A stretch of 64,000 nt of DNA from Myxococcales bacterium (GTDB taxonomy: Bacteria; Myxococcota_A; Polyangia; Polyangiales; Ga0077539). The stretch spans positions 50,625 to 114,624 of the forward strand of contig JAEUKI010000001.1 in assembly GCA_016793325.1 (NCBI GenBank), read 5' to 3'. The notes beneath the pieces were generated by a model. It saw only the letters and a program-made list of their open reading frames with translations. It ran no database searches and was not told the origin of the DNA. Of the stretch, positions 741 through 36,252 are shown in pieces. Positions within the stretch are counted from its first letter, which is position 1; every line of letters starts with the position of its first letter. A program made the position numbers and the translations under genes.

Positions 741-761
741 GCGCGCCGCGTAGGCTCGCAG

Positions 762-868
762 CGCGAGACACCCATTTTCAAGAGCGCCCGAAAATGTGTC
801 TGGCGCCCAGCAAATGTGCCGTCGCCGGTCGACTGGCGGCGAAGAGCGCGCCGCCAGGAATGGCGACG
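762..868. repeat. Copy 1 of a ~107-bp structured intergenic repeat (two hairpins)
   Basis: Near-identical to 3954-4060 in direct orientation. The core 'gaaaatgtgtctggcgcccagcaaatgtgccgtcgcc(g/a)gtcgactggcggcgaagagcgcgccgccaggaatggcgacg' has one mismatch. It contains the stem ctggcggcg/cgccgccag nested inside cgtcgcc/ggcgacg, and a second stem agacac..attttc/gaaaat..gtgtct. It ends 5 nt before the stop (874) of the minus-strand gene. Confidence 0.85.
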
Positions 869-873
869 TCGCG

Positions 874-2805
874 CTACGCGTTGGCCGTGAGCACTGTAGA
901 CGAGGCGCTCGGTTCGCACGGCGCTCGTTCGTTCGTTGCGCGAAGGTGCCGCGCGAGATCCGCGCCCACGGCCTCGTAGCGCGCGAGGCCCTTGCACGCC
1001 CGGTCCCAGAGCGCTCGTCGCGCGAGGCCGCTCGCGCGCAATGTCTGTCGCAGCCGGCATCGCGTCGCGTCGATGGGCTCGAGGCGCATCGTGTGCTCGA
1101 GGCGCAAGAGCTCTGCGGCGCCGAAGCGCTGCTCGAACACGAGCTCGAACGGCGCGACCGATTGCAGCACCGGCCGCACGGTCGCGTGCGTGTCGTCCGC
1201 GCGGAGCACGGTGACGTCCCACGTTGATCCCGGGCGCATCTCGCCGCGGACGCTTCGGACGAACTGGCTCCATTGCGGCCAGCGCTCGATCGCTTCGAAC
1301 ACCTTCCACGCGCGATCGATGTTCGCGGGCAGCTCGGTGCACACGTCGAAGCGACGCTCGTCGCGCGACGTCTCGACCCACGGGAGCTGCTTCGCGTGCT
1401 GCGCTCGGCCGGTCGGCCACCGCTCGACCGACGAGTCGATCGCGATCGCCGCGGCCGCGCCCGCTTGAATCGCAGACTCGAGCGACGAGGTCACGTACGG
1501 AGCCATCCCGCCGAGGTTGGTCGCGAGATAGACCGGCGCGCTCGCGCACACGGGTCGCAGCGGCCCGTGCCTCACGAGCTGCGTCGCGCTGGAGGTGCCC
1601 CAGACGTGATGGCCAATGGGCTTCGGCAGCGACGGATCGGCGCGGCGCTCGTCGGCCCAGAGGATCTCTGCGAGCTCGTCGGGCGAGTGGTCGCGCGAGC
1701 GCGTCCCGAGGCGAGGATGTGCGAAGTCCGTATCGAGGCTGATCGACCCCACGACGGCGGTCACCGCGGGAGGACGCAGCCACGGACGATACTGCGGATA
1801 CTCTCGAACGATCGGGTGCCAACCGCGACGAACGTTGTGGCCTCCCAGCGGGAGCGCGCGATCGAACGCGCGATCGAAGTACCACGTGATCCCGAGGTGC
1901 TCGTACACCGAGTCGCGCAGCACGTCTTGCAGGCGCGCCGGCTCGAAGCCGAACCCCTCGGCGATGGACGCGTCGCTGCGCGCGAGGAGCTTCGCGAGCG
2001 CCGGCGGAGGAAGCGCCAAGACGACGCGCTCGACGTCGGCGTGCCCTTCGGTGAGGCCCACGCGAACGCTCGCGCGACCGCGCCCCTGCGCGAGGCTCCG
2101 CGCCGCGGTGCGTAGCCGAATCTCGACTCCGAGCCGCGCGAGCTCTCGCGCCCAGAGCGAGAGGAAGCCCTCGGGCGCGTTCGGGGGCTGGGCGTTCCAG
2201 AAGAGCGTGCTCTCGCGTTGCTGGAACAGGGCGTCGAGGTTCGCTCCGATGCGATAAAAGAGCTCCCACACAGTCATGCGAAGCGTCCCCGCGATGCCGC
2301 CGAGGGCCGTCGCGCGAAGCCAATTGCGGCACGTCTCGCTCAGGGCGTTGCGCTCCAAGAAGGCCTCGACCGAGCACTCGTGCGGCGCGCCAAGACCCGC
2401 TCGATACCGCGCCCACTCCGCGGCGATCACCGCGAGATCCGACGCCGTGCACGCGCGCACGAACGGAACGAGCCAATCCGCCCGCAGGCTGTACTGCGGG
2501 ACGAAGTGCGACTCCCACCGCGTGCCCAACAGTCGAAACAAGTGCGGCGCGGTGCGGTAGGTGCCCTGGTACACCTTGCAAGAGTTTTCGCCGCAGTAGT
2601 AGCCGTCTTCATCGAAGCGCGCGGCCCACAGGCCGCCGAGCTCGCGACCGCTCTCGAAGAGCGTGACGCGATGGCCTGCGCGGGCGAGGAGCAGCGCCGC
2701 GGTCATTCCGCCAGGGCCGCCGCCGATGACGGCGACGCGTCGCGCGTTGGGTGATGTTGATTCTGTGTGTTTCTGCGGAGGACCCGCGTCGCGCCCGTCG
2801 TTCAC
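874..2805 (-). CDS. FAD/NAD(P)-dependent oxidoreductase (amine-oxidase/desaturase-like) fused to a C-terminal SRPBCC/START-like domain
   Basis: The GTG at 2805 overlaps the upstream TGA (GTGA). Rossmann motif VAVIGGGPGGMTAALLLARAGHRVTLFESGRELGG. The last ~150 aa (RFDVCTELPANIDRAWKVFEAIERWPQWSQF...) look like an SRPBCC ligand-binding domain. The Arg-rich extension of the track ORF up to 3198 overlaps the upstream gene and is rejected. Confidence 0.75.
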   Translation of the reverse strand: MNDGRDAGPPQKHTESTSPNARRVAVIGGGPGGMTAALLLARAGHRVTLFESGRELGGLWAARFDEDGYYCGENSCKVYQGTYRTAPHLFRLLGTRWESHFVPQYSLRADWLVPFVRACTASDLAVIAAEWARYRAGLGAPHECSVEAFLERNALSETCRNWLRATALGGIAGTLRMTVWELFYRIGANLDALFQQRESTLFWNAQPPNAPEGFLSLWARELARLGVEIRLRTAARSLAQGRGRASVRVGLTEGHADVERVVLALPPPALAKLLARSDASIAEGFGFEPARLQDVLRDSVYEHLGITWYFDRAFDRALPLGGHNVRRGWHPIVREYPQYRPWLRPPAVTAVVGSISLDTDFAHPRLGTRSRDHSPDELAEILWADERRADPSLPKPIGHHVWGTSSATQLVRHGPLRPVCASAPVYLATNLGGMAPYVTSSLESAIQAGAAAAIAIDSSVERWPTGRAQHAKQLPWVETSRDERRFDVCTELPANIDRAWKVFEAIERWPQWSQFVRSVRGEMRPGSTWDVTVLRADDTHATVRPVLQSVAPFELVFEQRFGAAELLRLEHTMRLEPIDATRCRLRQTLRASGLARRALWDRACKGLARYEAVGADLARHLRATNERAPCEPSASSTVLTANA

Positions 2806-3800
2806 GCGATCCCTCCGCGTCGGGCGCTGCGCGGCGAGCCTGCGGGCCGCGCGACGGGGCGACGGTCGCCGTCGAGGAGCCAGCGCGCGAGGAGCTTTCC
2901 GATCCCGAGCTCGAAGAGCCCGGCGAGCGTCGCGCACAGCGCCGTCGTGCTCGCGAGCAGCAGCGCGGGGTGCCTCGCGAGAAACGTGCGTGCGCGCTGC
3001 GCGGGCGCCTCGGGCAGCGCAAACGGACGCCGCAGACCCGGCGCCTGCACGCTCGCGACCGTGCGCCACCGCGGGTGCGCGAGCAGCGCTGCGCAAAGAT
3101 CGTACGGCGGAACCTGACACGGCACGCCCTCGATCGCGCGCGCTTCGCCAGCGTTTCGCGCGGCGAGGTGCAAGATCGTGCTCACGAGGCCGCTGCACGT
3201 GATCAGCGCGTCGGTGCTGTCGAAGCAGCTGCGGTCGCCTTCGATCGCGCGCTCGAGTCCCCGCAAGAGCGCGTCATCGTCGCGCCCCGGTGCCACGGCG
3301 ATCTGCAACATCTGCCACAACAACCGAGCGGCGCCGTAGACCTTCTCGCTGCCCGCGTGGCGCGAGACGGCGCGCGCGATGGCTCCTGCGTGCGCGGCGA
3401 CGGCGCGGTCTCGACAGCGGAGCACCGTGGTCATTCGCTGGTGCTTCGCGAGGTACTCGACCGCATTGTCGGCCTCGAGGACGAAGCTGTCCCAACCCGG
3501 CCCCGAAGCGTGCAGAAGAACGCCGTCGCCCGCGTAGATCGCCGCGTGGCAAGCCCACGCCGGCCCGAGTCCCGACAAGAGTTCGGGCCGCACGGCGCGG
3601 GACCACACGTTGAGGCACGCGACGAGGTCCGAGCATCGGGCTGCGCCACGGTCGTTGTCGCCGTAGACGCCGAAGACGAGAACGTCTCCAGGCTGGAGGG
3701 GGCTTGTGCCGACGAGGGGGGTCTCGAGAGCGCTCCGCTGCGAGGGTGTCGGTGCAGCGGGGGCGTTGTTCAGCGCGGTCATCGAAGAGCGCTCGAGCAA
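2802..3800 (-). CDS. Hypothetical membrane-anchored protein, possibly NlpC/P60- or YiiX-type papain fold
   Basis: 332-aa ORF with ordinary composition. C-terminal hydrophobic helix (ALLLASTTALCATLAGLFELGIGKLLA). The segment LQPGDVLVFG...CHAAIYAGDGVLLHASG resembles papain-fold amidases at motif level only. An alternative start is M7 at 3782. Confidence 0.55.
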   Translation of the reverse strand: MLERSSMTALNNAPAAPTPSQRSALETPLVGTSPLQPGDVLVFGVYGDNDRGAARCSDLVACLNVWSRAVRPELLSGLGPAWACHAAIYAGDGVLLHASGPGWDSFVLEADNAVEYLAKHQRMTTVLRCRDRAVAAHAGAIARAVSRHAGSEKVYGAARLLWQMLQIAVAPGRDDDALLRGLERAIEGDRSCFDSTDALITCSGLVSTILHLAARNAGEARAIEGVPCQVPPYDLCAALLAHPRWRTVASVQAPGLRRPFALPEAPAQRARTFLARHPALLLASTTALCATLAGLFELGIGKLLARWLLDGDRRPVARPAGSPRSARRGGIA

Positions 3801-3953
3801 CGCGCGCGCCAGACTCGAGCACGAGCCAAAAACCGAGGATATTCAGCGTCGAACGCGCCTGGCCGCGCGTCGGACGAAGGGGGCGATGTCCAATCCGCGT
3901 ATCGGCCGAACGTTCAATTGGACAACGCGCGTGCCGCGGCGCGCAGGGCGGAG

Positions 3954-4060
3954 CGTGAGGCACACGTTTTCGAGAGCGCGCGAAAATGTGTCTGGCGCCC
4001 AGCAAATGTGCCGTCGCCAGTCGACTGGCGGCGAAGAGCGCGCCGCCAGGAATGGCGACG
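3954..4060. repeat. Copy 2 of the ~107-bp structured intergenic repeat
   Basis: Direct repeat of 762-868. It ends 11 nt before the stop (4072) of the minus-strand ParB-like gene, the same position relative to a gene 3' end as copy 1. Confidence 0.85.
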
Positions 4061-4071
4061 AGGCTTCCCCC

Positions 4072-5088
4072 TCAGCTCGCCGCCGCCCAGAGCTCGCCCT
4101 CGCTCGTATCGTCGAGCCACCGTCGCAGCCGCGTCGCGCCCGCGATCACCTCGCGGAGCTTCGAGGCGCCCTCGGCCGACGAGCCCTCTTCTTCGGTCGG
4201 CCACAGCGACTCGGCCTTTTCGAGCGCCGTGATCGCGGCGGACACGGCGTCGACGATCGCGTGCTTCTGTCTCTCGCGGCGCAGCGCTACGTCGGGGCCC
4301 GCCCACGCGTCGAAGCCTCCTTCGGCCGCTTCGTGCTCGCCGCTCGGGTGCTCGTCGCCGTCGATCGTGGTCATCGCCTCGTAGGCGTCTTTGACCTTGG
4401 GCTCTTTCTTGGCCTTCTTTCGAACGGACTTCGCTTCGCCGTTCTTCACGGCCGCCGCGGCCTCGAGCGCCTCGGGCTCTTCCATCTTGGTGAGCGCGAG
4501 CAGCTCCTTCTTGTTGTGGCTGATCGGCGTCGAGCGGATCGTGTCGCGCACCTCTACGGGCATCTCGCCGATCTTGAGCTCTTCTTTGATGGCCCGCTTC
4601 GCGCGGCCGGTGAGCCGCGCGGTGTCGTCGACGAACGCCGTGAGCTCGGGCTCGCGGGGCTTCTCGGCGCGCTTGGACTTCTTCTTTCCGTCGCCGCTGT
4701 CGGCGGGGGCGGACTTCGCGACGCGCTCGGCTTCGATCTCGCACCAGATGCGCTTTCGCTTGGCGATGTGCTCGGCGCGCTCGAGCGCAGAGAGCTCTCG
4801 GCGACACAGGTTTTCATCGATCTCGGCGAGCTCGGCCTGCGGTCGATCGAGGGCCTCGATCATCGCGGGGATCTCGGTCCAGCCGAGCTGCTTGCACGCC
4901 TCGAGGCGATGCAAGCCGCACACGAGGGTCATCGAGCGATCGAGCAAGATGGGCTGAAGCAGACCGCCCATCGAGATCGACTCGCGGAGCGCGTCGACGT
5001 CACCGAGCGAACGAAGCCTCGGCGCGGGAATCCGAATCGACGCGATCGGAACAGACTGCACATCGGGCAAAGCGTTGAGCGAGGTCAC
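4072..5088 (-). CDS. ParB/Srx N-terminal-domain protein with a long charged C-terminal region
   Basis: GTG at 5088 (VTSLNALPDVQSVPIASIRIP...). ParB-N signature: LLQPILLDRSMTLVCGLHRLEACKQLGWTEIPAMI. A Lys/Glu-rich low-complexity tail follows. The track ORF extension to 5472 is Arg-rich and rejected. Confidence 0.75.
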   Translation of the reverse strand: MTSLNALPDVQSVPIASIRIPAPRLRSLGDVDALRESISMGGLLQPILLDRSMTLVCGLHRLEACKQLGWTEIPAMIEALDRPQAELAEIDENLCRRELSALERAEHIAKRKRIWCEIEAERVAKSAPADSGDGKKKSKRAEKPREPELTAFVDDTARLTGRAKRAIKEELKIGEMPVEVRDTIRSTPISHNKKELLALTKMEEPEALEAAAAVKNGEAKSVRKKAKKEPKVKDAYEAMTTIDGDEHPSGEHEAAEGGFDAWAGPDVALRRERQKHAIVDAVSAAITALEKAESLWPTEEEGSSAEGASKLREVIAGATRLRRWLDDTSEGELWAAAS

Positions 5089-5147
5089 GGCCCGAGTGTG
5101 CGAGCACTCCCGCGCGCGACGCGAATTTGCCGCACATTTGCGCGCGA

Positions 5148-5762
5148 TTACCGGCCGAAGTACTCGCCGTACCAGGGGATCTCGCGCACGTCGATCGCGT
5201 CCTCGGGCACGACGTAGCTCGGGTCGAGCATCGCGATGACCTTGCCGAGCGTCCGGCGGTCGCGCTCGGCGATGACCGTGAAGCCCTCGCGCGCGAGCAT
5301 CGCGGCGCTCACGCCCGCGCCCCGCTGATAGCGCTTCTCTTCGGGGCGTCCGAGGTAGACGAACGTCGTTCCGCACGAGTCGCTCACTTCGAGGGTGACG
5401 CAGAGCTCGACCCGCTCGCGCGCAGCGAGGTCGCACATCGCGCGCGCTCCCTGGACGAGCGCGTCGGTGCAATCTCGCTCGGTGGTGTCCATCACGCGCG
5501 CTTTGCCGTCGAGCACCGCGAAGCCATCACCGTCGTGCAGCGTCGTGAGCGGACGCGGCGTCCCGAGGCCGACGTGCTCGGGGCAAAACGACACGGCGCG
5601 GACGTTTGGAAGACGAACGAGGCGAAGCACGAGGTCGTCGGCGTAGTCCGTTCCCTCCCAGCCCGTGGGCTTTCCAACGAGGCAAGCGCTCGTGAGGACG
5701 CGCAGCGGGTCTTCGGGCGTCGCGCGGCGGACGCGCTCCCAATCGATCGTTCCGTGCAGCAT
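5148..5762 (-). CDS. DUF523-family protein (YbbK / 2-thiouracil desulfurase-like)
   Basis: Start at the ATG giving MLHGTIDWERV.... The motifs LTSACLVGKPTGWEGTDY and SFCPEHVGLGTPRP match my memory of DUF523 (SaCLlG..vRydG ... CPEv.gGl..PR). The longer track ORF would overlap the divergent gene at 5872. Confidence 0.7.
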   Translation of the reverse strand: MLHGTIDWERVRRATPEDPLRVLTSACLVGKPTGWEGTDYADDLVLRLVRLPNVRAVSFCPEHVGLGTPRPLTTLHDGDGFAVLDGKARVMDTTERDCTDALVQGARAMCDLAARERVELCVTLEVSDSCGTTFVYLGRPEEKRYQRGAGVSAAMLAREGFTVIAERDRRTLGKVIAMLDPSYVVPEDAIDVREIPWYGEYFGR

Positions 5763-5871
5763 GTGGGAGACATGAGGGGCGATCGAATCGATCGTCAATG
5801 GCTCGTACACAGAAGCACGTGCGTGCAAACACGGATCGCGCGCGAGCGCGGCGACGTTCGACAATCGTCGA

Positions 5872-8040
5872 ATGACGGCGAACACGTTGGCGTTGCTTCG
5901 AACCTGGTTGGGGGTCTGGGCGCTCGCGGCCCTCGCGTCTGCGTGCAGCGACGGCTCGCAGACCTCTTGTACGCAAAACGCCGACTGCCCTATCGGCGCG
6001 CAGTGCGTTGAATCTGTGTGCCGAGTCGCTCCGCGCGACGCCGCGGCGGACATGGGCTCGGTCGACGCCGGGAGCGCGATGGACGTCCCGCGACCGATGG
6101 ACACGCGCGCGCCGCGCACGCTCGCGGGCGTGTCGATCGAGCCGATGATGGCGCAGATCGTCGTGCGGCCGGGCGAGCGAGGGACGCAGCGGTTCACGGC
6201 GACGGCGCGCTACGACGACGGCTCGACGAGCCCCGCGCCCGCGCCCGAATGGAGCCTCTCGAGCCGCGCGCTCGGCGACATCGGCGTGGCGACGGGACTC
6301 TTCGAGGCCAACGGATTCACCGGCGGAACGGTGCAAGTCACGGTGCGCATCCCCGACGGCGCGGGCTCGACGATCAGCGCGACGGCGACGCTGCGCGTTC
6401 GACTCGAGAGCGAGTCGTTTGCGATGGGCGTCGCGCCCGACGCGCGCTCGAACTTCGCGGACCTCGAGGCCGTCACGCCCAGCGTCTCGGCGTCGATCGT
6501 GTATCCGCTCGACCGCGCGGTGATGCCGCAAAACGTCTATCCCGCGAACGTTCAGTGGCTCGAAGGCGCGGCGGGAGACCTCTATCGCGTGGAGCTGCGC
6601 AAGCCGAACTTCACGGCGCGGTTCTATCTTCGACACACGGGGGCGGGGTTTACGAACAGCTTCTTGCCCGACGTCGCGACGTGGCAAGCGTTCGCGCAGA
6701 GCGACGTCGCGGACGCAGGCGAGATCACGGTCGCGCGATGGGTGGCTGCGATGGGGCGCGGCTATGCGAGCGCGCCTGTGCGCGTGAAATTCGCGCCAGG
6801 AGCGCTCACGGGGAGCGTCTACTACTGGACGGTCTCGAGCGCGCGCATCGTCCGCATCGACGACGGAACCGCGACGCGCGTGAACTTCATGCCCAACCCG
6901 CCGTGGCCTCGCAACCGCGACCAGAACTGCATCGGCTGCCACACGGTCTCGCCGAGCGGGCGCTACATGGCTGGTCGATTGGGCGGCGGATTCAACACGG
7001 GCACGGTGTTCGACCTCACGACGGACCTCACGGGAAACCCGCCTCCGAGCCGGTTCAATCCGACGCAGACGGACTGGTGGTTCAACTGGTGGAGCCCGGA
7101 CGAGACGCGGTTGATCGCGTCGCGCGGCCCCAATCCGACGGGGCTCGGGCTGCTCGATCCTGTCACAGGAAATCAAGTTCCCACGATGGGCACGCCCTTG
7201 CCGGCGAACAACGCGACGCACCCGTCGTGGTCGCCCGACGGGCGCGAGATCGCGTACGTCTCGGGCGCTTCTGATTGGGGCGTCGACTATCGCAACGGGG
7301 ATCTCTCGGTGATCCCTGTGACCGCGCGCGACACGTTTGGTCCTTCGCGCACCGTGCACCGCGGCGCGATGTTGCCCGGCGCGAACCCAGCGCACGCGGC
7401 GATCAGCTATCCCGTGTGGTCTCCCGACTCGCAGTGGATCGTGTTCGCGCACGGGTTCAGCGCGCGCTCGAGCGCGCAGCCCGCGGCGCTGTACGTCACG
7501 CGTCGCGACGGCGCCGAGCTGCTTCGACTCGACAACGCCAACGGAGGCGCGAGCGGACAGAGCTCGTTCGAGCCGCGGTTCAGCCCGTTCGACTCGGGTG
7601 GGTATTTCTGGCTCGCGTTCTTGTCGCGTCGCGACTACGGAAACACGCTCGCGGGCACGCGCGGAACGAACCGCGAGCAAATCTGGGTCACCGCGATTCG
7701 CCGCACGCCCGCTGGCCCCGATGGGATGCGCGACCCGGATCCTCGCTACGGCGGTGACCCTTCTGAAGTGGGCTATTGGCTCCCGGGGCAGGACCCGCAG
7801 TCGCGAAACATCTCTGCGTTTTGGGCGCCGCGTCCGTGCAGGCCCAACGGCGAGCGGTGCTCGGTCGCCAGCGAGTGCTGCAGCAACGACTGCCGTCCGC
7901 CGAGCGGCGGTGGGCCGGCGGTGTGCTCTCCGCCGCCGCGCACCGAGTGCAGGATGGAAGGGCAGACGTGCTCGGTCGACGCGGATTGTTGCGACGGGCT
8001 GACGTGCTTCAACCGGTCGTGCTTGCGCGGACCGGGCTGA
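5872..8040 (+). CDS. Lipoprotein with a TolB-like (PD40/WD40-like) beta-propeller, Ig-like region and Cys-rich termini
   Basis: Signal peptide and lipobox LAALASAC. PD40-type repeats HPSWSPDGREIAYVSG and YPVWSPDSQWIVFAHG. Cys-rich N-terminal segment (CTQNADCPIGAQCVESVC) and C-terminal segment (CSVASECCSNDC...CSVDADCCDGLTCFNRSC). Confidence 0.8.
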   Translation: MTANTLALLRTWLGVWALAALASACSDGSQTSCTQNADCPIGAQCVESVCRVAPRDAAADMGSVDAGSAMDVPRPMDTRAPRTLAGVSIEPMMAQIVVRPGERGTQRFTATARYDDGSTSPAPAPEWSLSSRALGDIGVATGLFEANGFTGGTVQVTVRIPDGAGSTISATATLRVRLESESFAMGVAPDARSNFADLEAVTPSVSASIVYPLDRAVMPQNVYPANVQWLEGAAGDLYRVELRKPNFTARFYLRHTGAGFTNSFLPDVATWQAFAQSDVADAGEITVARWVAAMGRGYASAPVRVKFAPGALTGSVYYWTVSSARIVRIDDGTATRVNFMPNPPWPRNRDQNCIGCHTVSPSGRYMAGRLGGGFNTGTVFDLTTDLTGNPPPSRFNPTQTDWWFNWWSPDETRLIASRGPNPTGLGLLDPVTGNQVPTMGTPLPANNATHPSWSPDGREIAYVSGASDWGVDYRNGDLSVIPVTARDTFGPSRTVHRGAMLPGANPAHAAISYPVWSPDSQWIVFAHGFSARSSAQPAALYVTRRDGAELLRLDNANGGASGQSSFEPRFSPFDSGGYFWLAFLSRRDYGNTLAGTRGTNREQIWVTAIRRTPAGPDGMRDPDPRYGGDPSEVGYWLPGQDPQSRNISAFWAPRPCRPNGERCSVASECCSNDCRPPSGGGPAVCSPPPRTECRMEGQTCSVDADCCDGLTCFNRSCLRGPG

Positions 8041-27419: not shown

Positions 27420-29609
27420 TTAGAGGAGCAAAAAGGTGAAGGGGCGCGTCATCCACGAGGCCGTGGAGACCTCGCGCCGCAGCCACTGCGCGGGGTCGCG
27501 GTGTCCGCTGAATACGCGCACGTCCGAGCCCGCCGACTCGAATGGCGGCCGAGTGTCGATGGGGAATTGCACATCCACCGGCAGGTCGTCCGCTCCGTCG
27601 TTGTCCATGTCGCCCGGAGAACCGAACTGCATCAGCCACCACCGACCGTACGTGTTGCCCTCGATCCCTTCGTCGGAGTACGTGAACGGCGTCGGCATCC
27701 GCAACGCGAGCGTGGGAGCGCCGAGCGCTGACAGCGTGGGGTTGCGATAGACGCGAAGGAATTCGGGGTCTGCCGCCGACGGAAGGCGGCTGAAGATGAG
27801 CTCGTGCGTTCCGTCGCCGTCGAGGTCCGTCGAGCGTGCGGCCGCGACGAATGCCGGAGGCAGCACGATCTCCTCCATCGTGATGCGATGCGCACCCGCG
27901 GCATCGCAGACGACGCGGGCGATGATGGCTCGTGGTTGTTGTGCACGCGGGCGGATGAGCGTCTCGGGCTGACCGTCACCATCAACGTCGCCGATGTCTT
28001 CGAGTGAGGGCCCCACCATCGAGAGCATCGGCGTGTCTGCGAGCTGACGGATCGTTGTGCCCGTAAACTCGAACGCAGCGAGTCGATACGGCGGGCTCGA
28101 TGGGCTGCCCGTTTGTGCGAGAACGACGCGCGATCGGCGTCCGCCGGTCGTCGGGCACTGCGACGAGCGAACGATCTGACGCAGGTAGCTCCCCGTGACC
28201 GTCGTAGTCGCGACGAGCTCTTCGCGTGCGTTGCCGAGAAACAAGCGGAGCCATGTCGTCGGGAGCATCCCCGGTGCGAAGGTGAGAGACGCGAAGTCGC
28301 TGAATCCATCGCCATTGACATCACCGAGGTTGGCGACGGCGCGACGGAGGGAGCGAAGCTCGGTCAGTTCGACCGGTGAGAACCACTCGTTCCATGGATC
28401 TACGGACCAGAACGAAGTGGACCATCGCGGGGCAGTCCTGCTCGGCCCGCCGAAAGCAACGCGCATTCGTTGACCGTTCACCGCCGAAAGCACGTCGGAG
28501 AACCCGTCCCCGTTGAAGTCGCCAATCGGCTGCACTTGCTCGCCGCCGAGGCCGGTCTCGATCGGGGAGGTGACGAGCTCGAGTCGGCGTGCTTCGTCGA
28601 CGAGGTTCGATCCCCCAAAGGACACCGTTGGCGGAGAGCTACTGGATCTCAACGTGCAGGAGAGAACGTCCGCATACGCATCGCCGTCGAAGTCGAAGAA
28701 TGGCGTGTCGTACCCGCGCGTTGCGCGGCGCGTGAGCCGAAACGGCACCGTGGTCGCCGCGCGTTCGGTGCCGTCGCTCATGATGCCCGTCACGCGCCAG
28801 TACTGAACGACGTTCGGCGCGATGGGAATCGGCGGACGCGACGCGGCATCCGTCGTGAACCACGAGCCGCGCCCGAACGTGCACAGCCGATCGGTGCACA
28901 GGCGGTGCTCGTAGCGCACGAAGTCCGGGCGCGTCGTGATGACGAACGTGGGCTGCACGCTGTTGTACGTCCACGTCGAGAGCGGCTCGATCGGACGCGG
29001 GGGGTCGGGCAGGCAGCGGCCGGCGACGAGCTCGTAGGTCGCGTTGCAACGGAGCGCGCATGCGCCCATGGCGCACGAGGCGGTGCCGTTGGGGTCGGTT
29101 GGGCAGCGCGTGCAAGAGCTTCCGCAGGCTTCGGGGGTACCGGTCGTGGCGGTGTTGCACTGCGTGCCGCAAAGGACGCCGCCGTCGGCGACGCACGGGT
29201 GGATGACGTCGGGCGAGCTCTCGACGGTGACATCGGCGAACGCATCGGCGTCGTTCGCAGAATCCTCTGTGACCGCGGCGTCGAGAGAGTCTGGAGAACC
29301 CGCGTCCTGCACATCTTCGAAGGAATCTCTCGCGTCGATCGCATCTGTGGCCGGTGTGCGATCACCTGGACTGTCAACATTGTTGGCATCCATCCCCGAA
29401 GGATTGACCGAGGTTCCACAAGCACTGGTTTGAAGACCAACCAATGTGGCCAATAGGAAACTACGGTAGGTGTGGCTTGACGCGATGACGGTCGCGTGGT
29501 GTCCTCTAGCTCTCCAACAAAGAGGTGGTGGTATGTTGCAGGGCGATCGGGTGAGGACGGCGTTGTCGTGGTCGGGCAAAGCGGATGACGTTCGGGGACG
29601 GGGGCTCAT
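27420..29609 (-). CDS. FG-GAP/VCBS-repeat lipoprotein with a Cys-rich N-terminal module (start codon unresolved)
   Basis: Lipoprotein signal YRSFLLATLVGLQTSAC at about 29470-29420. Cys-rich module (CVADGGVLCGTQC...CGSSCTRC...CAMGACALRC). FG-GAP loops: FDFDGDAYADVLS, GDFNGDGFSDVLS, GDVNGDGFSDFAS, GDVDGDGQPETLI, TDLDGDGTHELIF, GDMDNDGADDLPV. The only canonical in-frame starts upstream of the signal are ATG 29609 and TTG 29579. Both overlap the divergent rhs start. Confidence 0.75.
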   Translation of the reverse strand: MSPRPRTSSALPDHDNAVLTRSPCNIPPPLCWRARGHHATVIASSHTYRSFLLATLVGLQTSACGTSVNPSGMDANNVDSPGDRTPATDAIDARDSFEDVQDAGSPDSLDAAVTEDSANDADAFADVTVESSPDVIHPCVADGGVLCGTQCNTATTGTPEACGSSCTRCPTDPNGTASCAMGACALRCNATYELVAGRCLPDPPRPIEPLSTWTYNSVQPTFVITTRPDFVRYEHRLCTDRLCTFGRGSWFTTDAASRPPIPIAPNVVQYWRVTGIMSDGTERAATTVPFRLTRRATRGYDTPFFDFDGDAYADVLSCTLRSSSSPPTVSFGGSNLVDEARRLELVTSPIETGLGGEQVQPIGDFNGDGFSDVLSAVNGQRMRVAFGGPSRTAPRWSTSFWSVDPWNEWFSPVELTELRSLRRAVANLGDVNGDGFSDFASLTFAPGMLPTTWLRLFLGNAREELVATTTVTGSYLRQIVRSSQCPTTGGRRSRVVLAQTGSPSSPPYRLAAFEFTGTTIRQLADTPMLSMVGPSLEDIGDVDGDGQPETLIRPRAQQPRAIIARVVCDAAGAHRITMEEIVLPPAFVAAARSTDLDGDGTHELIFSRLPSAADPEFLRVYRNPTLSALGAPTLALRMPTPFTYSDEGIEGNTYGRWWLMQFGSPGDMDNDGADDLPVDVQFPIDTRPPFESAGSDVRVFSGHRDPAQWLRREVSTASWMTRPFTFLLL

Positions 29610-32600
29610 TGCGCTCTTCCTCTCCGCAACGGTAGCGCTGCTCTCATTGTGGCCGCAAGTCGCGAGCGCGCAGTCGATCACGATCTGCGGCGCACAGCGA
29701 GTGTCGCTACCGTGCGGTAGCCCGCAAGGAGGATGTTGCCAACAAGTGAGCCCTTGCTCTGGCGATTGCACCCCGGGTGCTGCTTCCTGCGCGACAACCC
29801 AACTCGTGGACTGCAACAACGGGAGCGTGCTGCCGACCGGAGGCACGCTGAACACGATGTGCGGCGCGAACACAACGACGAGCTGTGGCGCAGCGGCGAT
29901 CCCCGACTCGGTCGCTTGCACGCCGTGCGCCGGTGGAGAGCCGCAGCCAAACGAACGACAACCGGACAAAGAGAATCGCCCGTTTCCGCCGATCCCTGAG
30001 CCGGGGCCTCCACCACCAGGACCGGGACCCGAAGGACCACCGCCACCACCGCAGCCCGACTGCACGTCGGGCTGCTCGTGCCCGATCGAGCGAGGTGAGC
30101 CGGTTAGCGTTGGAGGTGGACGCCACACGCTGCATCCCATCACGCTCGTATCCGTTCCTGGGCCCTGGCGTGTGCCTCTCGAGTTCACGCTGCACTATTC
30201 GGACACAAACGAGTGGACGCCGACGCTTCACTCCGATGGTCTCGGCGGCATCGGTGTGATCGAAGACACGTCCTATGTGGCTCGGGGCTGGACCCACACG
30301 CTTTCCGAAGCGATTGTCGGCATCAGCACCACCGCGATCACCGACGGTTCTTGGTCTCCCAACACGTTTCCCTGGACGAGCGGCAACCCTTGCCAGGCCG
30401 CGGAGCGTGTGACTGGCAAGCGCATTCTGCATCGTCACCCGGAGGGAGGCTACGAGGAGTTTGGCTTCGCGACCAGTGGGACGGGCGGCGAGTCGTGCGC
30501 GGTCTCGGGGGCAGATGTTCGGCTGTCTTCGCGGCGCGGGACGCCCTATCGGTTGCGTGTGCTCAATTTTGCGAGCGCGACACGCGAATTCGAACTCACC
30601 GACCTGCGCACTGGCGTCGTCACAAAATTCGATCGACACGGACGAATTCTCTCGAAGAAGGCGCCGAGCGCGGCTGGGCTATTCGGCTGGACGGTCGAGT
30701 ACAATTCGGCGGATAGCATCGACGCACGTCGTCGCCGTATTGTGGCAATCAACCACGACTCGGGGCACCGCATCCTCTGGACGGATTTCGGAAGCCCTTC
30801 GCCGCGCAACTTCCTTCGGCGATTGTCGCTCCAATTTGGTACTACAACGCTCGAAGTCGCTCGCTTCAACTGGAACATCACCGCCAACGCGTATACGGAA
30901 GAACAGCGAACGTTCCTCAAGCTGGACTCGATCTATCTGGCGCAGACGGCAACCCAGTGGTTGTTCGAGTATGCCACCACGACGATGGGTTCCGCCACGC
31001 CGATCCCGATTCCCAACCGGATGACGCGTGCGACCAATCCGGCGGGTGTCCGCGTGTACGACGGAGAGCTCAGCCCGCGTTCGCATGGCAACCTGGGTGC
31101 GTACGCGGCGCGAACCCTCGCGTTCGACGACGCCGAAGGGGGCTGGGAGTTCCGTCGCCGTGGCTATGCGCAAGTGCAGCAAATGAACAGCGCTGGCGCG
31201 GTGCTCGGCGAGACCAACCCCTGCTCCACCGTCGGAACGCCCAACTCCATCGCGGTCATCGACCGTCGCGCGCGCAAGCTCGACAGCGGCGGCAACCCGA
31301 TCTCGTGCACAGTTGACAGCGACTGTGGGCCTACTGGCAGCGAGTTTCTCTGCACCCAGCGCCCGTATCCGGGCGGGAGCACGCGCTACTGCGCGCGGTT
31401 CATCTGCCAAGCCACGACAACGCCGGATTCGCCGGACGAGCCCTCGCAGTTGTCCGAGACGTGTGGGTGCAACACGAGTTCGTTGCTTTGGGCAAACGTT
31501 CCTTTGTCGGGGCCCAATCAGGTGCGGCGCATTCAGCGAAGGACGTCTTCGACCGGAGTGCGTACCTCGTACCAGCACGACGACCAGGGCCGTATCATTG
31601 CCCAGTGCGTCGGCGACGACAACGATGTCGTTGTTCGCGGCGACGCTTCGTCGTGTCCCTCGACCGGCCAGCTCGAAGAGTGGTCTTACGACAGTGAGAT
31701 TCCTTCGTATATGGGAATCACCCCGTGGGCTGTACACGAGTACCGTAGAACGAGCGTTCGCGGGTCGGGCTTTACGCCGTACAGCCGCGTGTGGACGCGC
31801 AGTCTCACTACTGGACACGTGACGTCCGACGTCGAGACGGCGTGGACGTACAGCCAATCGACGTGGACGTGGGCGTTGCAAACGCGTACGACGACGTACT
31901 CGTTTACGGGCTCTCCGCACGACGGTTGGACGCAGCGCGTGGGACCAGGCGACGGTAGCGCGTCCGATCCGATCCGGACCGCAGAATACTGGCCGCTTTC
32001 GACCACGAACGCGACGTCGGGACAGGTTCGCTACTCGCGTTGGCGGCGCGAGCGTCCGGGCGGAGCTGCGCTCGAGTTTCAGCGCGAGTACAGCGCTCAC
32101 ACGATCTATGGTGTGCCCGCGACCGAGCTCGACGAGCATGCCAACACGACAACGACGACCTTCGACAGCGCTGGCCGCACGAAGTCGATCACTACGCCGC
32201 TCGGCACGACGTACATCGCGTACGATTCGCTGGGACGAATGCTCTCGATGCGAAGGCCATCGGGACAGGCGACGGTGTACGAATACAACGGCAACTTCGA
32301 ACGTCCGTTTCGCATCGTGACGAGCGACACGCCAACGCTCATCGGAACCGACGCGGTTGCAGCCAGCGACGGCGCGGTGATCGAAGACACCGTCGATCCG
32401 TATGCAGTGCACATCACGCGCCTGTTTCGAGCACGCGCGATGGGCCTCAATGGGGCCGAGTGGATGCGGACGACCCAACACCTCGATGATCACGGACGTG
32501 TCGCGCGCGACGAAAACGCGGCGACGGGCGGCTTCACGACGCGCACGTACGACAACTTCGGCGAGCTGCTCGAGAGCCAGGACACCGCGGGCGTGCGCAC

Positions 32601-34860
32601 TCGCTACACCCGTGACACGCTCGGGCGTGTGACGACACTGACGCGCGACTACCTCGGTGGAATGCAGGCGTCTACGACGTTCGTCTACCAGGGCACTTCT
32701 GTGCGCGCTGCGCAAACGACGCAGCCCAACGGCCACACGCTCTATTACACGTACGACGACTGGGGACAGCTCGTATACTCGTACGCGCAGGACATGGGCT
32801 CGACGTGGTCGATCTATGCTCCGCAGGGCTACAAGACCACGCAGTACGAAGCGAACGGAACGCGCACCGCGTGGACCTACGACCGCGCGGGCCGGGTGAT
32901 CACGATCGACTACAACGCGGATTACCCGTCGCTCAACGGCGGTGATCGACGCTTCTGGTACGACGCACTTCCCGCGGGCGTGTCGTGCCCGTCTGTCGCG
33001 ACGTGCGCGAATTTGCTGGGTCGACTCGCGTACGTGGAGAACGACGCCACGCTGCCATCGGTCTACCAGACCTTCTACGGATACTCGAGCGCGGGTCTCG
33101 TTCAGCACGAGGACTATCTCGTCGGCGGCGTGTGGATGCGTACGCAGTACGAGTACGACACGATCGGGCGGCGGACGCGGACGGTGTTCCCGTTCTGGAC
33201 GGGCGATTCGATTCGCTACACGTACAACGACGGGACGATCTCGCACGACGCCGAGCAAGTGAGCGCGGCGCACTGGGACAAGAGCGGCGTCGCCCACCGA
33301 CCTGTGGTCGAGCGCATCGAGCGCATGCCCAACGGGCCGATCTCGCGCATGTGGTACGCGCAGCGGGCTAGCGGAGGACTTCCGACCAACGCGAGCATCG
33401 AGCGCAATTGGCGACTCGATGGCACTCCGTCGAGCGTGAGGTGGCGTTCGGGGTTGAACACGAGCGCGGACGTCGCGGACTGGTCGTACTCCTATCATTC
33501 GAGCGGGCAAATCGCGGGGTTGGCGAACGCATCGACGCCCAGCGAAACGGTCAACTATCAGTACGACACGCTCGGGCAGCTCACGTGCGCGACCGAAGGC
33601 CCGGTGTCTTCAACGTGCTTCGCGGGGGCGACGCAGGCGATCGCGACGTACTCGGTCGACACGTCGGGCACCCGAACGCAAGCGTGGGATCGCTTCACGA
33701 ACGATCTGCGAACGAATCTCCTGGGCACTCAGGCGATCGGGCCCAATCGGCCCGGTGGCTGGACGCGAACCGCGTGGAGCGGGCAGCCGGAGTTGAAGTG
33801 GACGTGGGGCTATGGATGGTCCAACGCGTCGCCTGGGCAGCGCATTCAAGAGTCTCGCTCGGGCTACACGCGAACGACGTCGTACTGGCCCAGCGGCGAA
33901 GTCGCTGCCGTGCAAGTGAACGACACGCGCGGAACGACGACGATCGCGAGCAGCAACGACCACCGCGGGCGCCGGATGTTCACGCGGACCACGTACCCGG
34001 GAGGACTGTCGATCGATCGCTTCTTCATCTACGACGACAGTGATCGGCTGATCGGCGTTCACCACACGGACTACAGCACCAATCGCAACGAGCTCTTCTT
34101 CAACGTCGAGAACGAGACCGCGTTTCGCCTCGTGATCGACAACGGGTGGAACGAGGTCGAGCGCACGTACTTCTACAACGATCACCTCGGGACGCCGCGC
34201 ACGGCCGTGTCCAGCGCGGCCAACGGCGCGAGCTTGGGTGTGACCTACCGCGCGCCGAGGGAGCCGTTCATGGCGAGCGCTCCCGTGGTTCAGAACGCGG
34301 TGCCAGTGCGACTGCGCTTCCCCGGGCAGTGGGAGGACGACGCGAGCGAGTTCGTGGGAACGAGCAACGAACAGTGGAGCACGAACCTATTGGGCAACCA
34401 CGCGCGCGTCATGGAGCCGACGGCGGGTGCGTACGGGAGTGTGGAGCCGGTGTGGTATCGGCCGCCGCACTTCATCGGGGCGTTCGCACCGATTCCGTTC
34501 AGCACATACGCCATGGCAGATCCGGTCGGTCTGTTCGACCAGTACGGTGATCTGCCAAGTGGATTCGGGCCAAACAGGACGAGCGATGGTTGGAACCCGC
34601 GCGCGCGGGATTCTTCGGATGGCTGCGGGACGCAGCGCGAGCCCGTGCAAACAGAAGCGTTGCCAATGTCCGGTGCGCCTGCTGGGCCACCGCGACCCAG
34701 CGAAGGCAAATACTGCCCGCACGCCGGTTCCGGCGCGTGCGACGGACGGAATATGCGGTGTTCTTACGGATGTGACGACGGTACGAAGTGCGAACTGACA
34801 GTTCGGTGTAGCGAACGTGGTTCGACTGATGGATGCCCGAGTCAGGCATGGTGCTTCTGA
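29533..34860 (+). CDS. RHS/YD-repeat polymorphic toxin with an N-terminal Sec signal
   Basis: ATG at 29533 is preceded by aagagg (8-nt spacer). Signal peptide LIALFLSATVALLSLWPQVASAQ. Many YD repeats (YTRDTLGRVTTLTRDY, YTYDDWGQLVYSY, WTYDRAGRVITIDY, YQYDTLGQLTCAT). RHS core end: YFYNDHLGTPRTAV...LRFPGQWEDD...YAMADPVGL. About 108 variable C-terminal residues follow. Confidence 0.9.
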   Translation: MLQGDRVRTALSWSGKADDVRGRGLIALFLSATVALLSLWPQVASAQSITICGAQRVSLPCGSPQGGCCQQVSPCSGDCTPGAASCATTQLVDCNNGSVLPTGGTLNTMCGANTTTSCGAAAIPDSVACTPCAGGEPQPNERQPDKENRPFPPIPEPGPPPPGPGPEGPPPPPQPDCTSGCSCPIERGEPVSVGGGRHTLHPITLVSVPGPWRVPLEFTLHYSDTNEWTPTLHSDGLGGIGVIEDTSYVARGWTHTLSEAIVGISTTAITDGSWSPNTFPWTSGNPCQAAERVTGKRILHRHPEGGYEEFGFATSGTGGESCAVSGADVRLSSRRGTPYRLRVLNFASATREFELTDLRTGVVTKFDRHGRILSKKAPSAAGLFGWTVEYNSADSIDARRRRIVAINHDSGHRILWTDFGSPSPRNFLRRLSLQFGTTTLEVARFNWNITANAYTEEQRTFLKLDSIYLAQTATQWLFEYATTTMGSATPIPIPNRMTRATNPAGVRVYDGELSPRSHGNLGAYAARTLAFDDAEGGWEFRRRGYAQVQQMNSAGAVLGETNPCSTVGTPNSIAVIDRRARKLDSGGNPISCTVDSDCGPTGSEFLCTQRPYPGGSTRYCARFICQATTTPDSPDEPSQLSETCGCNTSSLLWANVPLSGPNQVRRIQRRTSSTGVRTSYQHDDQGRIIAQCVGDDNDVVVRGDASSCPSTGQLEEWSYDSEIPSYMGITPWAVHEYRRTSVRGSGFTPYSRVWTRSLTTGHVTSDVETAWTYSQSTWTWALQTRTTTYSFTGSPHDGWTQRVGPGDGSASDPIRTAEYWPLSTTNATSGQVRYSRWRRERPGGAALEFQREYSAHTIYGVPATELDEHANTTTTTFDSAGRTKSITTPLGTTYIAYDSLGRMLSMRRPSGQATVYEYNGNFERPFRIVTSDTPTLIGTDAVAASDGAVIEDTVDPYAVHITRLFRARAMGLNGAEWMRTTQHLDDHGRVARDENAATGGFTTRTYDNFGELLESQDTAGVRTRYTRDTLGRVTTLTRDYLGGMQASTTFVYQGTSVRAAQTTQPNGHTLYYTYDDWGQLVYSYAQDMGSTWSIYAPQGYKTTQYEANGTRTAWTYDRAGRVITIDYNADYPSLNGGDRRFWYDALPAGVSCPSVATCANLLGRLAYVENDATLPSVYQTFYGYSSAGLVQHEDYLVGGVWMRTQYEYDTIGRRTRTVFPFWTGDSIRYTYNDGTISHDAEQVSAAHWDKSGVAHRPVVERIERMPNGPISRMWYAQRASGGLPTNASIERNWRLDGTPSSVRWRSGLNTSADVADWSYSYHSSGQIAGLANASTPSETVNYQYDTLGQLTCATEGPVSSTCFAGATQAIATYSVDTSGTRTQAWDRFTNDLRTNLLGTQAIGPNRPGGWTRTAWSGQPELKWTWGYGWSNASPGQRIQESRSGYTRTTSYWPSGEVAAVQVNDTRGTTTIASSNDHRGRRMFTRTTYPGGLSIDRFFIYDDSDRLIGVHHTDYSTNRNELFFNVENETAFRLVIDNGWNEVERTYFYNDHLGTPRTAVSSAANGASLGVTYRAPREPFMASAPVVQNAVPVRLRFPGQWEDDASEFVGTSNEQWSTNLLGNHARVMEPTAGAYGSVEPVWYRPPHFIGAFAPIPFSTYAMADPVGLFDQYGDLPSGFGPNRTSDGWNPRARDSSDGCGTQREPVQTEALPMSGAPAGPPRPSEGKYCPHAGSGACDGRNMRCSYGCDDGTKCELTVRCSERGSTDGCPSQAWCF

Positions 34861-34876
34861 GAGTATTGGAGACGTG

Positions 34877-35512
34877 ATGAACGCTCACACGATTAACAGA
34901 GTTCTAGAAATCGCATCGCCAGCGCTTCCTGACGACGATGGTCTGTTTGATGATGCCGACTCGCCGGTCACGATCCTTGGTCGCGGCAGGAGTTTTCGTG
35001 CGTCAACCGTCATTTCCGTCGTTTCGAAGGTCGCCGCGCGTGAGATGCTCCTTGCGTATGACAGCGAACTTACCGGGCCAATCGTAGTAGTCGCGGGAAT
35101 TCTAGGAAGCTCACGACAGCTAGTTCTGCGAGACGTTCTTACAAGCAGTTCAGCATCAAGAGTTCGATATCTGGGCGATCCAGATCCGGCCGATTGGATC
35201 GCGTTTGAGACGCTTCGTCAGTGTGTCGTTGGAGTTTTGCCGCACTGTGAGTGTACCTGGATGCTGAAAGGCATCGCGGAAGGCAACAACATCCCCGCTC
35301 CGACTTCGGGAGTCACGCTCGCGATTTCCTCTGCGGAAAAACTAGTCATGTCGGCGATTGTCTCGCTCGGTCTTTCACGCGAAGTAGCGAGCGTCGTCGG
35401 TAGGGACGCTTTCGCGTTGTGGGAGTCCGGCGCAAAGATCGAACTGGAGGGTCTCCGAAGAATTCACGGGGTGGGACTTTCGCTACATCTACGTGCCAAG
35501 TTGCAGGAATAA
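34877..35512 (+). CDS. Hypothetical protein; candidate immunity protein for the RHS C-terminal domain
   Basis: Starts 17 nt after the rhs stop on the same strand. GC is markedly lower than the flanks (e.g. 'gttctagaaatcgcatcg', 'caagcagttcagcatcaagagttcgatatctg'). 211 aa, no signal peptide. I recognise no family. Confidence 0.6.
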   Translation: MNAHTINRVLEIASPALPDDDGLFDDADSPVTILGRGRSFRASTVISVVSKVAAREMLLAYDSELTGPIVVVAGILGSSRQLVLRDVLTSSSASRVRYLGDPDPADWIAFETLRQCVVGVLPHCECTWMLKGIAEGNNIPAPTSGVTLAISSAEKLVMSAIVSLGLSREVASVVGRDAFALWESGAKIELEGLRRIHGVGLSLHLRAKLQE

Positions 35513-35518
35513 TGCCCC

Positions 35519-35761
35519 ATGCTCCGAACGCCTCGTTTGGTTCTTGAACGTATTCAATTCTGCCGAACTCGAGTGGTGCTATTTGCCGCGGTGGCCGTTG
35601 CTGCGACTGTCGCTAGTGCTCAAGGGGCTCGTGATGGCTCCTTCGAAACGCGAGTTGTCGCCGCCCTCCCTCCCCAATTCGACACCGCCGTCTCCGCCCG
35701 CATCGAACAAACGCAGCTCGCTGTCGCCATCCCGATCGACCTCAATTGGGGGCTCCCGTGA
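35519..35761 (+). CDS. Small secreted hypothetical protein
   Basis: 80 aa. Signal-like VVLFAAVAVAATVASAQG. The stop overlaps the next gene's GTG (GTGA at 35758-35761). Confidence 0.45.
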   Translation: MLRTPRLVLERIQFCRTRVVLFAAVAVAATVASAQGARDGSFETRVVAALPPQFDTAVSARIEQTQLAVAIPIDLNWGLP

Positions 35762-36252
35762 CTCGCTTCGCACTTCCCCTCTCCGCACTCTTGCTCGCGT
35801 GCCGCGAGGCTCCGCGGCGCACGTGTGTCGAGTCGCTCTGTTTCGAGTGGGCCGAGTCGCACACGACGCAGACCTCGGGTCGCCGCCACACTCTGCGCTC
35901 GGACGCGTGGGACGGCGCGTGGATCGATGTTCAATCGTGGGAGCCTGGACCCAATGCACCAACGTCGATCGGCGCGCTCCGCACGCAGTTTGCGAGGTTG
36001 CGTGAGCTCACGGCACCCGCGCGCTCGACGTCGATGCGCGATGGCTCGATCAACGGTCGCCCAGCAGCAGTCGAGGACGCCGTTATCGATTGGCGCGGGC
36101 ACGCGTATCGGCGCGTGACGTGGGTCGTTCCCTCGGTGGCCGCCGGAGCGCGGTGGATCGCGGTGGACGTCACAGCGCGCGCAGAGGATTGGGACCGCGC
36201 GAGCCCGCGCGTGCGGCGCTACATCGAGTCTGCGCGGTGGGAGACGCGCTGA
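35758..36252 (+). CDS. Hypothetical lipoprotein
   Basis: GTG start gives VTRFALPLSALLLAC (lipobox). 164 aa. No recognisable domain. Confidence 0.55.
   Translation: MTRFALPLSALLLACREAPRRTCVESLCFEWAESHTTQTSGRRHTLRSDAWDGAWIDVQSWEPGPNAPTSIGALRTQFARLRELTAPARSTSMRDGSINGRPAAVEDAVIDWRGHAYRRVTWVVPSVAAGARWIAVDVTARAEDWDRASPRVRRYIESARWETR

Follow-up and report, generated by a model that had tools for sequence, protein, structure and literature searches.

The window analysed here is a stretch of 64,000 nucleotides from a Myxococcales bacterium (assembly GCA_016793325.1, contig JAEUKI010000001.1, positions 50,625 to 114,624), and positions below refer to it unless another locus is named. It contains a gene for a large RHS/YD-repeat protein whose C-terminal tip of 108 residues ends in a cysteine-rich mini-domain, and which is followed by a gene for a protein of 211 residues, here called the partner. 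The mini-domain is a conserved, selected and modular C-terminal unit, which was identified at the extreme C-terminus of three unrelated carrier proteins. Tip and partner gene lie in a segment that is swapped between homologous flanks, and they probably represent a mobile two-gene cassette of the toxin/immunity type that belongs to a new family. The features of the locus are listed in Table 1.

Table 1: Features of the RHS locus, and cassettes found at the orthologous site in related genomes.
Feature	Position	Strand	Description or basis
RHS/YD-repeat gene	29533-34860	+	PF05593 and TIGR01643 matches
Predicted Sec signal peptide	29533-29670	+	MLQGDRV...GRGLIALFLSATVALLSLWPQVASA/QS, read from the sequence
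Cys-rich N-terminal segment, then Pro-rich linker	29671-30084	+	14 Cys within the first 200 residues
DPVGL, presumed autoproteolysis boundary of the RHS core	34519-34533	+	End of the TIGR03696 match and sequence reading
Tip linker, 58 residues, Gly/Pro-rich, 1 Cys	34534-34707	+	Sequence reading
Cys mini-domain, 50 residues (KYCPHAGSGACDGRNMRCSYGCDDGTKCELTVRCSERGSTDGCPSQAWCF), six family-invariant Cys and a covarying pair	34708-34857	+	Homologue alignments, AlphaFold2
Partner gene, 211 residues, candidate cognate immunity protein	34877-35512	+	Linkage, BLASTP network, Foldseek
Variable (swapped) cassette: last 26 RHS core codons, tip, partner, 3' junction	34456-35660	+	blastn, GC content at third codon positions
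Conserved right flank	35519-36252	+	80-residue signal-peptide protein (35519-35761) and lipoprotein (35746-36252), overlapping
Orthologous cassette, G003:C14 (L010)			Pro-linker and 12-Cys tip
Orthologous cassette, G003:C354 (L015)			Hydrophobic tip of about 60 residues with 6 Cys, and a 233-residue open reading frame
Orthologous cassette, G002:C218			Tip of about 150 residues and a 139-residue transmembrane open reading frame

The Tip and Its Cysteine Mini-Domain

In the initial annotation, made from the sequence of the window, a tip of about 108 residues (34534-34857) was placed behind YAMADPVGL, and both its exact sequence and the stop codon (34858-34860) were borne out. The annotation had counted ten cysteines in the tip, nine of them within about 50 residues; the correct number is nine (tip positions 31, 61, 69, 76, 80, 86, 92, 101, and 107), with eight of them in the last 50 residues. 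For at least eight cysteines per 50 residues, a binomial probability of 1.7e-5 was obtained at the cysteine rate of the whole protein (2.3%); in the shell, the rate is 1.1%.

The family of the mini-domain has the consensus [YF]C..xGSGxC......RCxYxCxDG...........C........CP, in which the invariant cysteines are spaced as C-x7-C-x6-C-x3-C-x11-C-x8-C and a CC doublet is absent. Across the three carrier types, these six cysteines do not vary, nor do one Gly and one Tyr, and the DG and P of the consensus are also conserved. An extra pair of cysteines, with one Cys after the DG (DG..xC) and the other in the final xxC, was found in five members (the window, L021, L022, L023, and L026) and missing in five others (L014, P0004, P0006, P0008, and L035), and a single cysteine of this pair was never found (Fisher P = 0.008, for sequences that are phylogenetically non-independent). 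A pair that is gained or lost together is what one added disulfide would give. In an AlphaFold2 model built on an alignment of nine sequences (predicted local distance difference test score, pLDDT, 83.9; predicted template modelling score, pTM, 0.61), the mini-domain forms four beta-strands, with the extra pair on strands 3 and 4. We lean slightly towards cysteines that are joined in three to four disulfide bonds.

Between the diverged copies L022 and L037, the ratio of nonsynonymous to synonymous changes (pN/pS) of the mini-domain was 0.15, showing that the domain is not decaying. The tip has too few residues for a usual enzymatic toxin, as the initial annotation had stated, and is a genuine, non-degenerate cargo with a conserved Cys-rich end. 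Since about 50 residues are available, and Cys, Tyr, Asp, and Arg are the only polar residues conserved, catalysis is unlikely; judged from the conserved residues, a stoichiometric binder would be a more plausible mode of action than an enzyme.

The mini-domain could not be assigned to a known family. The tip has no match in Pfam at E ≤ 1 and none in NCBIfam or PHROGs; the family profile has no match among PDB sequences at E ≤ 10, and Foldseek identified nothing significant for the model (best E 0.7 in the PDB and 0.07 in BFVD). For the linker, no homologues were identified beyond a Pro-rich similarity to P0004, one of the proteins described below. The initial annotation had called the tip knottin-like, a description that was abandoned for the predicted four-stranded beta mini-domain: without a significant Foldseek match in the PDB or BFVD, the labels knottin, defensin, and conotoxin were rejected, and none of the three occurs among the 50 best PDB matches listed. 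The conotoxin family of Pfam (PF02950) gave no hit on the window tip. For P0006 it gave 20.3 bits, compared to a cut-off of 25.1, over residues 330-391; this match starts upstream of the Cys region, which begins at about residue 367, and appears to take in a hydrophobic stretch and a spacer as well.

Occurrence on Three Types of Carrier Proteins

When 1.84 billion representative proteins were searched exhaustively with phmmer, three relatives were identified, P0004 (172 residues, E = 3.7e-9), P0006 (418 residues), and P0008 (91 residues), all of which match only the last 50 or so residues of the tip; two further hits were low-complexity repeat proteins. By six-frame profile searches, a single copy was identified in each of five out of 30 further Myxococcaceae genomes (E = 1e-18 to 1e-21). 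In a phylum-wide sample of 401 genomes, the mini-domain was present in the genome of the window and in 0 of the 400 others. A metagenome scan with alignment A1 added one locus, L035, and a profile scan of genome contigs returned only the G014 locus, which had already been found. The family is tiny, with about ten loci, so that statistics drawn from it are weak.

Three unrelated types of protein carry the mini-domain at their very C-terminus: RHS proteins, proteins named here YEILP, and eCIS_core proteins. In every carrier it is located behind a Pro/Gly-rich linker, which is the position that toxin domains have in polymorphic toxins. A full RHS protein with the mini-domain was found in the window only. 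In L035 (metagenome contig OBEQ012319207.1), another RHS gene is followed, after about 1.7 kb, by an orphan mini-domain with its partner gene. That RHS gene has a Cys-rich tip of another kind, about 80 residues long (DPCGGSCDQCCGPQG...KCRRRCNEQ). In this part of L035 (1-1916), the RHS tip is followed by a DUF6968 gene (E = 2.9e-10) and an AAA_21 ATPase gene on the opposite strand, and the orphan cassette lies beyond them.

The YEILP proteins, of 285-433 residues, were identified in Myxococcaceae. Behind a common MKxYEILP start, in which the motif is repeated, they have a stretch of the GCGCGG type and then a helical middle part that contains Cys, and their C-termini are variable, each being followed by its own small gene (L041, L036, L021, L022, L023, and L026). 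In one case (G014:C91; L041, 11652-15684), two tandem copies have a common N-terminus and different ends: copy A ends in transmembrane helices and is followed by a small transmembrane open reading frame, and copy B has the mini-domain at its end, with the partner gene behind it. A conserved gene coding for 126-131 residues (MxRLFNVEVFN...) is located upstream of the YEILP genes. Neither the YEILP family nor this upstream gene has a hit in Pfam, NCBIfam, or PHROG.

The third carrier type is represented by P0006, which has an N-terminal eCIS_core domain (PF13699, formerly DUF4157; E = 2e-28) and a transmembrane helix directly before the mini-domain. At an extracellular contractile injection system (eCIS) locus (L042, JGI 3300079385 contig, 525-6485), two adjacent eCIS_core genes are present, the second of which codes for a transmembrane helix and the mini-domain. 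The next gene there has a faint CIS_tube annotation only, and the partner gene is missing. An N-terminal signal peptide is missing from two of the three carrier types, the YEILP and the eCIS_core proteins.

The Partner Gene

The partner gene starts 17 nucleotides behind the rhs stop codon, with a GGAG sequence 7-10 nucleotides upstream of its ATG. The relative nearest to it comes from L035, where the gene overlaps the end of the orphan mini-domain (28% identity over 130 residues, BLASTP E = 2e-7). The L035 partner in turn is related to that of L026 (E = 2e-8), and the L026 partner to that of L014 (E = 2e-5); direct BLASTP comparisons of the window partner to the L014 and L026 partners were insignificant. 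A profile search of 5.8 billion proteins added only three further members, two of which (L036 and L037) directly follow a mini-domain gene, with L038 being too short to judge.

The initial annotation had proposed to look for homologues of the tip that are paired with homologues of the downstream gene. This pairing was identified in seven of nine testable loci (present in the window, L014, L022, L037, L023/L036, L026, and L035; two further loci were untestable), one of them being the orphan beside an RHS gene. Conversely, all partner homologues found among the 5.8 billion proteins with upstream sequence available follow a mini-domain gene. Between L022 and L037, the partner has a pN/pS of 0.33, indicating purifying selection as for the mini-domain.

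The partner has no hits in Pfam, NCBIfam, PADLOC, or PHROGs, Pfam Toprim being absent at E ≤ 10, and its family profile gave nothing meaningful against PDB sequences. For the AlphaFold2 model (pLDDT 66, pTM 0.71), the top Foldseek match was the A subunit of topoisomerase VI (Topo VI-A, 1d3y; probability 1.0, E = 1.5e-3, template modelling score on the query 0.50), and the other top hits were Methanosarcina mazei Top6A, Spo11, and RecR. The GDxDPxD-like motif retains a DxD in the window, L035, L014, and L023, and is lost in L026 (DLS) and L022; across the six partner members, a conserved catalytic Glu is not evident on the strand before the DxD. With a degenerate DxD and no evident Glu, the partner looks like a non-catalytic Toprim-like binder. 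None of the six partner proteins analysed for hydrophobicity has a hydrophobic N-terminal leader or a credible transmembrane segment.

Exchange of the Cassette

The initial annotation had interpreted tip and downstream gene as a swapped cassette, and comparison to the same-genus loci L010, L015, and L011 confirmed this. The blastn homology stops at 34453-34455 and resumes at 35661-35698. Compared to G003, the identity is 87-88% in the left flank and 80-82% in the right flank, with no homology over 34456-35660. Counting that of the window, at least four different cassettes were identified at the orthologous site. In a paralogue, G002:C159, DPVGL is found at the same place, followed by a different tip of about 200 residues with one Cys and then by a transmembrane open reading frame. 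Swapped tips and partners between homologous flanks are a hallmark of polymorphic toxin loci.

The drop in GC content that had been noted across the 3' end of the tip and into the next gene was likewise found. In windows of 300 nucleotides, the GC content falls from 0.64-0.68 to 0.54-0.57 over 34750-35650. At third codon positions (GC3), the RHS body has a value of 0.81, which falls to 0.61 in the tip (0.585 for the mini-domain taken by itself) and to 0.547 in the partner; the lipoprotein gene farther downstream is back at 0.79.

Two observations on related loci stand apart from the cassette of the window. L010 and L015, from one metagenome-assembled genome, are variants of a single RHS 3' end and right flank, with a different cassette in each; the bin could contain more than one strain, or the two loci could be paralogues. 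In L012 (G005:C801, 511-3348), an RHS paralogue carries a tip of about 230 residues with a Cys/His motif (DAFRHCVWSCSM...IHE), which suggests an enzymatic toxin, and is followed by a 164-residue open reading frame.

In three same-genus loci, the gene pair of the right flank is kept directly behind the variable cassette. By tblastn, its proteins were identified beside RHS genes with other tips, the lipoprotein with 83% identity in G003 and 63% in G002. A role for this pair as the cassette-specific periplasmic immunity was rejected on these grounds; instead of providing immunity, the two proteins could assist this RHS system as accessory factors.

The RHS Carrier

The open reading frame of the carrier is open from a GTG at 29470, with the likely start at the ATG at 29533, and codes for a product of 1775-1796 residues that ends at a TGA. 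PF05593 (RHS_repeat) matches in six stretches (E = 5.3e-12, Pfam), and TIGR01643 matches with E = 5.2e-15 (NCBIfam). The Rhs-associated core model TIGR03696 reaches 18.3 bits, compared to a cut-off of 32.5 (E = 0.0025), and the RHS-associated core of the carrier is divergent. The weak match ends at DPVGL; the sequence directly before the tip reads ...FSTYAMADPVGL. What the initial annotation had called a canonical core boundary is hence present as DPVGL at the named position, and is less canonical in the core score and in the first protease-type (acidic) motif, which is VEPV and not the expected DPxG.

The N-terminus reads as a Sec signal peptide, with the most hydrophobic 19-residue window (mean hydropathy 1.87) at residues 25-43 from the ATG, so that the carrier would be exported by the Sec pathway. 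The Cys-rich segment behind it fits an exported, disulfide-bonded RHS protein. A public gene call, P0003 (1291 residues), starts about 505 codons too late and thereby misses window positions 29470-30984, in which the signal peptide is encoded together with the Cys-rich and Pro-rich segments behind it; it is considered truncated because residues 157-479 of the RHS N-terminus match the RHS protein of a congener (G002:C159) at 36% identity. The neighbouring genes code for FG-GAP, PEGA/TPR, and Ser/Thr-kinase proteins (Pfam), and Pfam scans identified no domains of a type VI secretion system (T6SS) among the neighbouring open reading frames between 19083 and 41930.

Proposed Function and Alternatives

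In the explanation favoured here, the RHS shell would be exported, folding around the tip, and would be cleaved between DPVGL and the following Phe. The tip would be delivered to neighbouring cells in a contact-dependent and T6SS-independent manner, as proposed for the signal-peptide Rhs proteins of Myxococcus. The mini-domain, being too small and too poor in polar residues for an enzyme, would act stoichiometrically by binding a target, and the partner, a protein without a signal peptide whose Toprim-like fold is catalytically degenerate, would neutralise the mini-domain by direct binding. For M. xanthus, it was shown that signal-peptide Rhs proteins mediate T6SS-independent kin discrimination (PMC10433427).

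Several points weigh against this explanation. Autoproteolysis at DPVGL is not assured, considering the divergent core and its VEPV motif. The homology of the window partner to the YEILP-linked partners rests on a transitive link via L035 and L026, and an hhalign comparison of four YEILP-linked partners to the window partner was borderline (probability 51%, 28 columns). The partner is absent at the eCIS locus L042 and on a contig of 918 bp (L043), and in a mirror-tree test the divergence of mini-domain and partner was uncorrelated (Spearman -0.26, P = 0.35). The resemblance of the partner to Toprim is at the fold level only, in a model of modest confidence and with no sequence support. Finally, a partner without a signal peptide fits poorly with a disulfide-dependent toxin outside the cytoplasm.

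The same features bear on the compartment in which the mini-domain may act. A cytoplasmic target is favoured because the partner and two of the three carrier types lack a signal peptide. An oxidising site is favoured because of the Sec export of the RHS protein, the covariation of the cysteine pair, and a precedent, the 92-residue C-terminal domain of the bacterial teneurin-like YD-shell protein BiTLP, which is toxic only in the periplasm and has its disulfide inside the shell (PMC13018210). A target in the cytoplasm is given somewhat less than an even chance, and a target in the envelope is considered possible at a lower rank. The action in an oxidising compartment that the initial annotation had suggested for a disulfide-rich tip is therefore uncertain: the covarying pair favours disulfides, but the partner looks cytoplasmic, and all six partners analysed and two carrier types are signal-less.

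A stricter form of the envelope hypothesis holds that the tip is a knottin-like, disulfide-rich toxin which acts only in an oxidising compartment (the periplasm or outside the cell), for example on the membrane, lipid II, or an envelope protein. It would account for the covarying pair, which suggests a fourth disulfide, for the Sec signal and the Cys-rich exported N-terminus of the RHS protein, for the periplasm-dependent, disulfide-bearing domain of BiTLP (PMC13018210), and for the transmembrane helix that directly precedes the mini-domain in P0006. However, all six partners lack a signal peptide and a transmembrane segment, and the YEILP and eCIS_core carriers an N-terminal signal peptide. 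Envelope-acting toxins are normally paired with exported or membrane immunity proteins. Together with the Foldseek and PF02950 results given above for the knottin, defensin, and conotoxin labels, this renders the hypothesis less likely than not.

Alternatively, the cysteines might bind zinc, and the mini-domain would then be a zinc-ribbon-like binder in the reducing cytoplasm of the target cell. This would agree with a partner without a signal peptide and with the eCIS and signal-less carriers, which imply cytoplasmic production and probably cytoplasmic delivery, and the weak, non-significant fold matches of the mini-domain include RadD and phage zinc-finger proteins. However, CxxC knuckles and a conserved His are absent, six invariant cysteines are indivisible into Cys4 sites, and exactly two cysteines that are gained or lost together fit a disulfide and not a metal site. 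With the carrier of the window being Sec-exported in addition, zinc binding is regarded as rather doubtful.

For the partner, a role other than immunity was considered, as a cytoplasmic chaperone, a maturation or loading factor, or an unrelated co-mobilised gene. Its lack of a signal peptide although its RHS protein is exported, its absence from the eCIS locus, and its predicted, enzyme-like Toprim fold would be in line with such a role. However, two of six members have a degenerate DxD, and the Glu on strand 1 is not evident; the gene is kept with the orphan mini-domain of L035, which has no delivery domain, a classic behaviour of immunity genes; and it diverges fast, as immunity genes do. 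A role of this kind is therefore considered improbable.

That the tip is a functionless, vestigial or degenerate remnant, for which its shortness, the lack of a known domain, and the extreme rarity of the family (about ten loci) could be cited, is hardly credible, considering residues invariant across three carrier types, a pN/pS of 0.15, a confident AlphaFold2 fold, and an intact partner gene with a Shine-Dalgarno sequence.

Within the favoured explanation of a toxin/immunity-type cassette, one specific version can be imagined, which is a long shot. The mini-domain would be a Cys-stabilised inhibitor, of about 50 residues, of a Toprim enzyme of the target cell (for example the B subunit of gyrase or topoisomerase IV, primase, or topoisomerase VI), and the dead Toprim-like partner would protect the producer as a decoy of the target. 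An analogy would be provided by the small zinc-finger protein YacG, which blocks gyrase through GyrB.

Comparison to Known Systems

By its repeats, variable tip, and cassette structure, the system belongs to the signal-peptide Rhs/WapA-type polymorphic toxins. Like WapA of Bacillus subtilis and Rhs4 and Rhs5 of M. xanthus (PMC10433427), it comprises a large YD-repeat protein with a Sec signal outside a T6SS context, a variable tip behind DPxGL, a small adjacent gene that is swapped with the tip, and orphan cassettes. In contrast to these, the tip module of the window has only about 50 residues, which are stabilised by cysteines, and no enzyme fold can be recognised in it; furthermore, the RHS core diverges, and the partner has a predicted Toprim-like fold.

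With the BiTLPs (PMC13018210), which are also present in Myxococcota, the system shares a Sec-exported YD shell around a small non-enzymatic C-terminal domain, of about 92 residues and with a disulfide in BiTLP. However, the NHL propeller and FN-plug of BiTLP were not detected in the RHS protein of the window (Pfam, E ≤ 1; RHS_repeat only), and the C-terminal domain of BiTLP is membrane-active and unrelated in sequence to the tip of the window. In eCIS toxins with an N-terminal DUF4157/eCIS_core, the homologue P0006 has the mini-domain at the position of their toxin domain, inside an eCIS locus; here, the copy of the window differs in being carried by an RHS protein, and the eCIS copy in having no partner gene.

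Eukaryotic knottins, conotoxins, and defensins resemble the mini-domain in their size of about 50 residues, their six to eight cysteines, and a beta-rich fold, which for the mini-domain is a predicted one. However, the mini-domain has no sequence or fold match to them and no CC doublet, and it forms the tail of large bacterial delivery proteins and is paired with a signal-less partner. The partner resembles the Toprim domain of Topo VI-A and Spo11 (1d3y, 9o0g, 8urq) in its predicted alpha/beta fold and in the GDxDPxD-like motif after a beta-strand. It differs from them in the lack of a sequence-level match, of an evident Glu, and of a 5Y-CAP domain, and in the loss of the DxD in two members; without the 5Y-CAP domain and with degenerate catalytic residues, it is probably a non-catalytic binder.

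Disulfide- or cysteine-rich toxin domains and Toprim-like immunity proteins are not mentioned in the 2012 catalogue of polymorphic toxins (PMC3482391). A toxin-discovery screen of 2022 likewise makes no mention of Cys-rich toxin domains or Toprim-like immunity proteins. If the tip were inert, the locus would be an example of RHS loci that accumulate odd short tips. Should the mini-domain turn out to inhibit an essential enzyme stoichiometrically, it would offer a compact and rigid lead for studying that target, and if the partner is a Toprim decoy, this would be the first non-enzymatic, peptide-sized cargo of the RHS/eCIS type with a target-mimic immunity protein. A Cys-stabilised cargo with a signal-less, Toprim-like partner raises the testable question of where and how such a mini-protein kills. 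The repertoire of polymorphic toxins gains an unnamed, very small and apparently non-enzymatic cargo family together with an unnamed partner family, and the same module of 50 residues is shuffled among RHS proteins, eCIS_core proteins, and the previously undescribed YEILP family of myxobacteria.

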